This document shows positions 8,443-9,474 of a DNA stretch of 14,894 nucleotides, one piece after another. This DNA is from an archaeon (lineage in GTDB: Archaea; SpSt-1190; DYHY01). Location: assembly GCA_043803745.1 (NCBI GenBank), contig JAZDJS010000004.1, positions 1 to 14,894 of the forward strand, written 5' to 3'. Every line of letters begins with the position of its first letter. Within the stretch, counting starts at the first letter, position 1. Both the position numbers and the translations under genes were made by a program. Under the pieces are notes generated by a model that saw only the letters and a program-made list of their open reading frames with translations, ran no database searches and was not told the DNA's origin.

Positions 8443-8451
8443 TTTTTATAC
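8443..8451 (+). promoter_or_regulatory. TATA box for the tRNA-Gln/array transcript
   Basis: TTTTTATAC about 25 nt upstream of the first AGCCCCG unit at 8475; no comparable TATA directly upstream of the tRNA. Confidence 0.55.
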
Positions 8452-8474
8452 TGAAGTTGAGCTGTCTGTTGAAA

Positions 8475-8557
8475 AGCCCCGTCGCCGAAACTTTGGAAAA
8501 GTTTCACCAAAATAGGGGGTTTGGTGGCAAACCTCCGGGCAGAGAAGTGATGGCGAC
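8475..8557 (+). ncRNA. Candidate structured RNA unit upstream of tRNA-Gln that shares the tRNA 5' end
   Basis: 14-bp direct repeat gaaaagccccgtcg (8471-8484 = 8569-8582); gtcgcc/ggcgac closing stem; internal hairpins 8487-8505 and 8515-8536. Confidence 0.4.
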
Positions 8558-8572
8558 AATCGAAGAAGGAAA

Positions 8573-8645
8573 AGCCCCGTCGTCTAGCGGTCAAGGATTT
8601 GGGCCTTTGGAGCCCGAGACGGCAGTTCGAATCTGCCCGGGGCTA
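8573..8645 (+). tRNA. tRNA-Gln (anticodon UUG)
   Basis: Cloverleaf with acceptor AGCCCCG/CGGGGCT (A1-U72), D arm GTCT..GGAT, anticodon arm TGGGC-CTTTGGA-GCCCG and T arm GGCAG-TTCGAAT-CTGCC; discriminator A; no intron and no encoded CCA. Confidence 0.95.
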
Positions 8646-8665
8646 CTACTTGTCTTTGTTCGATT

Positions 8666-8741
8666 AGCCCGGGGTGATTCGTGTTTGGGCAGTTCTTGTC
8701 TGCAGACAATCCAGCAAGGCTGGAGAATCTGCCCGGGGCTA
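8666..8741 (+). ncRNA. tRNA-like unit 2 (76 nt), possible tRNA-derived sRNA or pseudo-tRNA
   Basis: AGCCCGGG...CCCGGGGCT-A acceptor-like stem; T-arm halves ggcagttc and gaatctgcc separated by a 29-nt two-hairpin insert. Confidence 0.4.
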
Positions 8742-8761
8742 CTACTTGTCTTTGTTCGATT

Positions 8762-8835
8762 AGCCCGGGCCGCGCATGAGAAAGAATCCCGAAGCGTTTT
8801 AAGCGAAGGTCCTCTGCAGGGGATGCCCGGGGCTA
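8762..8835 (+). ncRNA. tRNA-like unit 3 (74 nt)
   Basis: AGCCCGGGC...GCCCGGGGCT-A closing stem; unique interior with hairpin tcctc-TGCA-gggga. Confidence 0.35.
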
Positions 8836-9474
8836 CTTACACTGCTCTTGAGCCGTCAGATATGGGAGGCGCGATGCTTGCAGATTTTCTTGTACCCGTT
8901 CGTAAATCGCATATGTCACTTCCGCAAGAAGCAGTGCATAGTCAAACTTTCCATCGCGGGAAAGCTCAAGCCCGTTATCGTAAATCTGGACCACGACGTT
9001 CCCGTGCTCGAGGCTGATTTTTCCGACCTCGCGGGGCTGTCCGGCTAGACGGAGCCGGATAACTTCCTTCCTCACGCCGTTTCCTGCTTCATATCCCTCC
9101 TTGACTGCGGAAAGCCCAGGATAGATTTCACCGGCAACGACATCCGAAAAGACTGCATAATACTGCCTACCAAGCACAGCCTTTTCGCTGGACGGCAGGT
9201 CCTCGCCGAAAACAGCCTCGGTCCAATAGGCTACGGAAGCTTCCTCGGGAGACCCGTTGGCGGGAGGCTGGTGGAAAAATGTTGCGAAATTGCTCCGGCT
9301 TGGCGGAGCCCCTGGAATTGTTGCCCCGAAACGGTCCTCGATTTCCGGGCTGAGAACAAGTTCGCTCAGCTGTCGGAGGAGTAGACTGTAGTTTTCCGGC
9401 GCAAGTTCGACTTTTCGGGCCACGCTCCGGCGGAAACTCGCCGCTTTTATCCCTTTGTTATTGGGAGACTTCAA
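8833..9474 (-). CDS. Hypothetical protein (ORFan)
   Basis: 213-aa ORF with globular composition filling the gap between the tRNA array and aRF1; TTG start uncertain; stop codon lies inside the third repeat. Confidence 0.65.
   Translation of the reverse strand: MKSPNNKGIKAASFRRSVARKVELAPENYSLLLRQLSELVLSPEIEDRFGATIPGAPPSRSNFATFFHQPPANGSPEEASVAYWTEAVFGEDLPSSEKAVLGRQYYAVFSDVVAGEIYPGLSAVKEGYEAGNGVRKEVIRLRLAGQPREVGKISLEHGNVVVQIYDNGLELSRDGKFDYALLLAEVTYAIYERVQENLQASRLPYLTAQEQCK

Follow-up and report, generated by a model that had tools for sequence, protein, structure and literature searches.

The window analyzed here is a complete contig of 14,894 nucleotides (nt; contig C4, 14.9 kb) from G000, a draft genome of an archaeon of the SpSt-1190 lineage (1.23 Mb in 51 contigs, 90% complete). 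A look-up of its eRF1 assigned it no more narrowly than Archaea, and the nearest named records by blastn were MAGs labeled "archaeon" (68-76% identity) and "Candidatus Altiarchaeota" (66%). Among housekeeping genes encoding eRF1, a class I tRNA ligase, a family B DNA polymerase and CDP-archaeol synthase, the window carries a transfer RNA (tRNA) gene, tRNA-Gln(TTG), set in an array of tRNA-sized units designated A, 2 and 3. The initial annotation had recognized one real tRNA-Gln among these units. Indeed, ARAGORN reported a single tRNA in the window (8573-8646), the Rfam tRNA model gave no second match in the window at E<=1, and the two agreed on 8573-8645 alone. Units A, 2 and 3 did not score as tRNAs with ARAGORN or with the Rfam tRNA model, and the suggestion that they are tRNA mimics was only partly supported; unit A proved to be a copy of a dispersed element rather than a mimic.

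The anatomy first reported for the array, with constant ends, unrelated interiors and a spacing of 93-98 nt, was borne out when starts and repeats were re-measured. Unit A, the tRNA, unit 2 and unit 3 start at 8475, 8573, 8666 and 8762, respectively, giving spacings of 98, 93 and 96 nt. Upstream of the tRNA, the sequence GAAAAGCCCCGTCG occurs twice (8471 and 8569) against an expectation of 0 by chance. Downstream, an exact 45-nt direct repeat contains the identical 20-nt linker that had been described before units 2 and 3, and the 14-nt sequence TGCCCGGGGCTACT occurs three times (8634, 8730 and 8824) against 0 expected from 200 shuffles. The interiors of unit 2, unit 3 and the tRNA had no significant mutual similarity (z-scores of -1.4, 0.9 and -1.1). 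Viewed as a repeat-spacer arrangement, the array has the 45-nt repeat twice in full and once as a 14-nt partial copy, with interiors of 51 and 54 nt that share motifs with other loci. No metagenome matches were returned for strain variants of the linker. The coordinates of all features are collected in Table 1.

Table 1. Features of the tRNA-Gln array and its flanks, in window coordinates.
Feature	Position	Strand	Description
TATA-like box TTTTTATA	8443-8450	+	About 24 nt before unit A/partial 5′ copy; read by eye
Upstream partial copy U	8471-8484	+	tRNA-Gln positions 1-10 preceded by 4 leader nt; same sequence as 8569-8582
Unit A interior, inserted hairpin element (84 nt)	8485-8568	+	Family motif, fold
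Hairpin 1 of unit A	8487-8505	+	8-bp stem, 3-nt loop
Linker ACCAAAATA of unit A	8506-8514	+	AYCAAA-type linker
GC-rich hairpin 2 of unit A	8515-8536	+	Fold and z-score support across family
Functional tRNA-Gln, anticodon TTG	8573-8645	+	ARAGORN; Rfam RF00005, 56.4 bits, full length
45-nt repeat, first copy	8629-8673	+	tRNA positions 57-73, 20-nt linker and AGCCCGGG; 100% identity
Unit 2	8666-8741	+	5′ arm, T-stem remnant, insert, copy of tRNA positions 57-73
Unit 2 5′ arm AGCCCGGGGTGATTC	from 8666	+	Complementary to tRNA 3′ end
Unit 2 T-stem remnant GGGCAGTTC	8687-8695	+	
Unit 2 insert (29 nt)	8696-8724	+	
Unit 2 closing copy of tRNA positions 57-73	8725-8741	+	
45-nt repeat, second copy	8725-8769	+	Exact direct repeat of 8629-8673
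Unit 3	8762-8835	+	AGCCCGGG, 54-nt interior, copy of last 12 nt of tRNA
14-nt repeat, third copy	8824-8837	+	Last 12 nt of tRNA plus 2 nt; commonest repeat class in lineage
Convergent open reading frame (213 aa)	8833-9474	-	No Pfam family; neighbor, outside array

The distribution of such copies was determined by scoring as a downstream copy at least 11 nt of a tRNA's own 3′ end lying no more than 450 nt downstream. In G000, 27 of the 43 tRNA genes had downstream copies of their 3′ ends, several of them two or three times, and 11 of the 43 had upstream copies of their 5′ ends; a stricter key returned 34 units after 23 tRNAs. The segments between the repeats were 25-200 nt in length and contained no open reading frame (ORF). 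The signal recognition particle (SRP) RNA also had three copies of its own 3′ end. A comparison with the tRNA loci of related genomes, which the initial annotation had proposed as a check, revealed similar arrays: 3′ copies were present at 14 of 30 loci in a genome of the same genus (G001), 8 of 30 in one of the same family (G003) and 9 of 30 in one of the same order (G004), with 5′ copies at 4, 0 and 1 of 30, respectively. Of the three genomes examined beyond the order, two lacked the pattern. A small genome of the same class (G005) had 2 real 3′ copies among 10 loci and 5′ copies at 0 of 10, and both kinds of copy were found at 0 of 10 loci in a large genome of the same class (G006) and in a distant complete archaeon (G019). 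Because the census genomes are kin and orthologous loci were counted repeatedly, these figures describe the pattern rather than test it. When metagenomes were searched with the 5′ 26-mer of tRNA-Gln, 80 loci were recovered, mostly intron-bearing tRNA-Gln genes of other archaea, and downstream copies were present at 3 of the 32 loci with a recognizable intron-less tRNA-Gln.

The boundaries of the copies, analyzed in 55 copies from four genomes, were quantized in tRNA coordinates. Exactly the final 12 nt of the tRNA were reproduced in 29 copies and the final 17 nt in 11; copies of the longer class begin directly after the conserved TTC of the T-loop. The right end lay 1-3 nt beyond the discriminator in 24 of the 55, and longer extensions were mostly whole-unit tandem copies. 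Both classes are represented in the window, where the left edge of the first 45-nt repeat copy, at position 57, is the 17-nt boundary and the third copy is of the 12+2 nt type. The likeness to a repeat-spacer array was in this respect deeper than first claimed, being genome-wide and with quantized boundaries.

An array on contig C44, with a 53-nt repeat and different interiors, has the same design as that at tRNA-Gln. Identical tandem units were found at C21:74662 and C21:52756, indicating that arrays also grow by whole-unit duplication. Units of different tRNAs had motifs in common, namely GGAYYTCG, GCTCRRCC and a CCTCTGAGGAGG hairpin, and these were 5- to 36-fold enriched downstream of tRNAs.

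Several observations concern the surroundings of these tRNA genes. In G000, many tRNAs or last repeat copies are followed by a module consisting of AACCC, a T-run in a T/A-rich hairpin and CCGTTGACGGGCG (for example at C19:3621, C30:11117 and C44:4992). The module is also present within some 5′ modules and looks like a shared terminator or regulatory block. CCA follows both the tRNA and the repeat copies in G001 (L096, L106 and L108); in G000 it often follows only the last copy and not the functional tRNA. The number of tRNA genes called in G000 was 43 (full length) with the Rfam tRNA model versus 27 with the ARAGORN intron search, which also proposed some implausible introns of 355-1498 nt, and tRNA annotation in this lineage varies with the tool used.

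Unit A belongs to a family of dispersed elements whose hallmark is GAAACTTT-N3-AAAGTTTC-AYCAAA followed by a GC hairpin, the whole abutting a partial copy of the host gene. All of these are present in unit A, where the motif occupies 8487-8511 and the upstream host-gene copy 8471-8484. Folding analyses predicted that 8552-8557 pair with 8481-8486, such that the upstream tRNA copy and the 3′ part of the element would anneal to close a two-hairpin structure. Six copies of the element are present in G000, at tRNA-Gln, tRNA-Val, tRNA-Cys, SRP RNA and two other loci. Flanking copies of host sequence (11-28 nt) are clear at five of the six, and the sixth has a weaker, imperfect match of 16 nt. The elements upstream of tRNA-Val and tRNA-Cys abut partial copies of the tRNA 5′ end (19 and 25 nt, respectively), and one copy lies at the 3′ end of the SRP RNA (Rfam RF01857, 50 bits, full length, below the gathering score).

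Individual loci of this family had further features. At tRNA-Val, on contig C49, a TATA-like box precedes the partial tRNA copy, as it does in the window. The SRP RNA locus (C28, approximately 19450-20032; L027 700-1233, minus strand) has the element at its 3′ end; next come a second copy of its final 12 nt and a T-run, and a third copy of the 3′ end, of approximately 50 nt, lies approximately 270 nt further on, a design like that of tRNA-Gln. At C50 1-700 (L004) the element lies between two 28-nt copies of the start of an apparently structured sequence without an Rfam match, and tandem repeats of approximately 100 nt follow at the contig end. A different 5′ event was seen at the same gene in G001 (L006, reverse complement, approximately 1384-1510), where a 36-nt pseudo-copy of the 5′ half of tRNA-Gln, with 2 mismatches, lies upstream of the gene and is followed by an 88-nt insert that has a TATA-like box and lacks the hairpin motif.

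The exact 25-nt motif was found in 53 stretches of public genomes (loci L032-L084), mostly archaeal and from many phyla, including Methanocaldococcus and genomes labeled Altiarchaeota, Woesearchaeota, Micrarchaeota and Nanoarchaeota. Approximately 20 of the 53 had imperfect direct repeats of 14-88 nt flanking and abutting the hairpin. In Methanocaldococcus and others, these repeats were imperfect copies of host sequence, including the ends of protein genes. The second hairpin of the element is real: its mean z-score across the family was -2.24, compared with -0.30 in an upstream control (p 3e-8). Among 52 usable segments there were 7 in which the 25-nt motif constituted the first bases of a tRNA intron predicted at the canonical position by the ARAGORN intron search, and in one of the loci (L079), by our own reading, the 5′ arm of the motif pairs with the 3′ end of the intron beside two 3-nt bulges. 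No bulge-helix-bulge (BHB) motif could be drawn from the fold around the copy in the window, which sits upstream of an intact tRNA.

Across the window and 18 related loci, only tRNA, SRP RNA and rRNA families of Rfam 15 were matched, and the hairpin element and the units had no match. Neither the hairpin motif nor the tRNA-end arrays were found described in the literature searched, supplementary files being outside its scope; within the searchable literature the 25-nt string was in print only in an unrelated Arabidopsis study. On contigs of giant-virus bins (L088, L089 and L091), the 25-nt motif makes up each of the two inverted ends of a 120-bp element that lies between TA repeats. Readings of the motifs as hammerhead-like, box C/D, H/ACA, K-turn or IS200/IS605-type-end sequences were considered by eye and had no support.

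The core of the unit 2 insert was also found elsewhere, in both orientations, at four loci that include one downstream of SRP RNA, and L288, a metagenome contig from a close relative of G001, has a T-loop-interrupted unit of the unit 2 design with a different insert. Unit 3 is orthologous to the sole unit of G001 and to the distal unit of L288, and is probably the older module. In these orthologues a block of approximately 30 nt is kept around AAGAATCCCGARGC...CGARGTCC, and the sequence of the terminal hairpin differs in each genome. The number of tRNA-Gln units is one in G001 versus two in G000 and L288. The metagenome alleles L254 and L234 are distinguished by a segment of 87 nt together with one copy of an 18-nt repeat, which either was inserted with duplication of the target or was deleted by loss between the repeats. 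When the interiors were compared with phage and plasmid collections, no phage match was obtained, and the one plasmid match was confined to the tRNA.

The initial annotation had placed all units behind one TATA box; a single promoter-like box does precede them, and T-runs of 5 or more are absent from within the tRNA-Gln array. In 18 of 23 arrays, including this one, no such run occurred between the tRNA and the last copy, and in about nine a terminator-like context followed the last copy (by our own reading). Because the arrays are uninterrupted by T-runs and the modules lie between promoter and transcript end, the units are probably transcribed together with the tRNA.

Two ORFs adjoin or overlap the array. 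The stop codon of the convergent ORF (8833-9474, minus strand) falls within the third repeat copy. A 186-aa ORF on the plus strand (8457-9017) covers the entire array and the tRNA and is surely spurious.

The explanation that we favor, with moderate confidence, is that the units are insertion or duplication modules stacked at the tRNA by a DNA process specific to tRNA coordinates and carried along in the pre-tRNA. The locus would then consist of one real tRNA-Gln gene and three passenger modules, each closed off by a directly repeated end of that tRNA. In unit A, a copy of positions -4 to +10 would precede the 84-nt hairpin element; unit 2 would be a segment of 51 nt lying between copies of the 45-nt repeat, which starts at T-loop position 57; and unit 3, as an older module, would terminate with the final 12 nt of the tRNA and 2 nt more. 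The process would act at the DNA level on stable-RNA genes throughout the lineage, breaking or copying at fixed tRNA coordinates (after 56 or 61, and 1-3 nt past the discriminator), with the repeats as putative target duplications. The survivors would be those events that left one intact gene copy, a filter imposed by selection, and the modules would probably be transcribed with the tRNA and then trimmed away as leader and trailer sequence, by RNase P and tRNase Z. The recurrence at most tRNA genes of the lineage points to an insertion or duplication process aimed at tRNA genes. Direct observation covers the exact and non-random repeats, their recurrence across the genome and the lineage, the quantized boundaries, the family membership of unit A and of the unit 2 core, and presence/absence variants whose limits coincide with the repeats; the role of the repeats as target duplications, the order of events, co-transcription and processing are inferred. 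The like-designed array on C44, the lack of T-runs within most arrays and the failure of the units to score as tRNAs, with interiors unrelated to the tRNA, also speak for this explanation. The initial annotation had offered tandem-duplication or integration scars as the mundane alternative; that idea is the closer of its proposals to the explanation favored here, although the scale and regularity of the pattern are not mundane.

Several results weigh against this explanation. In G000, at 90% completeness, no matches were found to PF00589 (tyrosine integrase), PF07282 (TnpB), PF00078 (reverse transcriptase) or PF01867 (Cas1). Cas1 was present in only one of 17 genomes of the class, where it belongs to a Cas12a CRISPR operon. 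The carrier is G001, with a Cas12a-Cas4-Cas1-Cas2 operon at the end of contig C3 (approximately 96800-102350; L333 8818-14350). The repeats also vary in length: they take in 10-18 nt of the tRNA, reach 45 nt in one array and 53 nt in another and span 14-88 nt in the hairpin family, unlike the target duplications of fixed length made by classical transposases. The filled and empty variants could equally have arisen by deletion between repeats. Finally, there are hints of constraint or function: unit 2 folds far better than its shuffles, units 2 and 3 pair with their own tails much better than with others, the block of unit 3 is kept in three genomes, and motifs are shared between units of different tRNAs.

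A stronger form of the favored explanation would have a DNA-insertion system of this lineage target the 56/57 or 61/62 junction of the tRNA and a base or two past the discriminator, placing short segments beside the tRNA, duplicating its end and thereby generating Cas1-free repeat-spacer arrays at most tRNA genes; with the unit A element, the same system would also provide a route for archaeal tRNA introns. We regard this form as speculative and rather unlikely.

The hints of function bear most directly on the proposal that the units are functional small RNAs, capped by tRNA ends and freed from a polycistronic precursor by RNase P, tRNase Z and perhaps the CCA-adding enzyme, which we consider unlikely. 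The initial annotation had read the unit ends as an acceptor-like stem. Consistent with this claim, units 2 and 3 were predicted to form closing stems of 15 bp and 8-9 bp, respectively, which carry a bulge and the tRNA discriminator, and unit 2 folded better than its shuffles (z-score -3.5). Pairing of these two units with their own tails was predicted at -18.5 and -17.4 kcal/mol, compared with about -12 kcal/mol with other tails, placing them among the best of the 31 units. A strongly structured, cloverleaf-like unit follows a tRNA on contig C51 (z-score -5.5), the core of unit 3 is conserved, and the units lie within the transcription unit, uninterrupted by T-runs. Against this proposal, tRNA models score no unit, and the fold of unit 3 is no better than that of its shuffles (z-score +0.3). 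The acceptor-like stem does not generalize: among 31 units, 4 paired best with their own tail and 7 had it ranked in the top tenth of partners (Wilcoxon p 0.10), and general acceptor mimicry was rejected as unsupported. Moreover, the number and content of the units turn over between species of one genus, and tandem copies on C21 are identical.

The polarity of the arrays bears on a second proposal, that short pieces of DNA were acquired serially at the tRNA 3′ end, with duplication of the target, by a Cas1-like or other site-specific integrase to build a proto-CRISPR-like array. The extra units of G000, L288 and L254 adjoin the tRNA, the shared unit is distal, distal copies are degenerate, left boundaries are quantized, and the commonest repeat, of 12+2 = 14 nt, has the size of casposase target duplications at tRNA 3′ ends (compared below). 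The polarity could also reflect loss, however, and the 45- and 53-nt repeats misfit a ruler. No terminal inverted repeats were seen by eye at unit ends, Cas1 has the distribution given above, and the published casposon duplication takes up less of the tRNA than the copies here. We judge serial acquisition improbable.

The units might also be attachment-site (att) scars of ordinary integrative elements, viruses or plasmids that a tyrosine integrase inserted into the tRNA 3′ end and that were later deleted almost completely; such integrations classically leave direct repeats of tRNA 3′ ends behind. A 5′ tRNA fragment and insert beside an intact tRNA were described in Caldiarchaeum (PMC3293823). 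This proposal is more doubtful still: the segments between repeats are short and gene-free, 27 of 43 tRNAs are affected, the PF00589 integrase was not found in G000, units of different tRNAs have motifs in common, and the interiors are unmatched in the phage and plasmid collections. Equally little credit can be given to a fourth proposal, that the units are decayed tandem duplicates of tRNA-Gln, with gene conversion between them and the functional gene maintaining the similarity of their ends. The 93-98-nt period does equal a tRNA plus spacer, the units open with a strand like the 5′ side of the acceptor and close with the 3′ strand, and unit 2 retains the T-stem remnant; the interiors, however, have no residual similarity to tRNA, units after different tRNAs share motifs, and most units elsewhere keep the 3′ copy only. 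An assembly artefact, in which the 45-nt duplication is a read mis-join, is suggested by the short contig in a 51-contig draft and can hardly be entertained, as the same architecture is present in the independent assemblies G001, L288 and L254 and at many other G000 loci.

When a tRNA gene is accompanied by a partial copy of its end, the usual interpretation is that a virus or plasmid once integrated there. In this genome such copies are the rule (27 of 43 genes), lie in short arrays and have boundaries quantized in tRNA coordinates, and they occur in genomes in which no integrase, casposase or reverse transcriptase was found; this scale, the boundaries and the link between hairpin element and introns amount to more than ordinary scars. 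If a dedicated process makes the arrays, it would represent a new mode of remodeling the most conserved archaeal genes and a natural analogue of the step proposed between casposon integration and CRISPR repeats. The unit A element, as a leader insertion with target copies and as an intron start in other phyla, offers a handle on how archaeal tRNA introns arrive, a question still open according to a 2026 preprint (10.64898/2026.10.13.758758). A practical effect is that the units yield spurious ORFs and can mislead the annotation of tRNAs and att sites.

The arrays resemble several known systems in part. [quoted passage not shown] The link to BHB tRNA introns lies in the introns predicted to start with the unit A motif, whereas the element in the window lies in the 5′ leader, outside the mature tRNA, with no BHB in its fold. 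For unit A, the closest described anatomy is that of Caldiarchaeum subterraneum, where a 5′ tRNA fragment, a 1.8-kb recombinase-encoding insert and an intact tRNA succeed one another at one locus (Sugahara et al. 2012, PMC3293823); that paper proposes such disruption as a route to intron gain and tRNA fragments. The inserts here differ in being 50-190 nt long and gene-free, at most tRNA genes and at both ends.

In CRISPR arrays, Cas1-Cas2 integrates at the leader-repeat junction. The arrays described here likewise consist of direct repeats and unrelated segments of similar size, with the extra unit beside the "leader" (the tRNA) and a degenerate distal repeat. They differ in having only 2-3 repeats, in that the repeat is the tRNA's own end, in the absence of Cas1 from G000, and in "spacers" that share motifs mutually and with other loci and match no phage or plasmid. 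The closest known process is integration by casposases, although no casposase, polymerase cargo or terminal inverted repeats were found here, the inserts are 25-200 nt rather than kilobases, and the repeat takes in 12 or 17 nt of tRNA sequence, compared with the last 4 bp in the casposon (PMC6977970). According to the same work, the casposase duplicates 14-15 bp of its target at a tRNA gene's 3′ end and depends on the tRNA sequence upstream, which serves as a "leader"; the commonest repeat here, of 14 nt (12+2) at the tRNA 3′ end, falls within that range.

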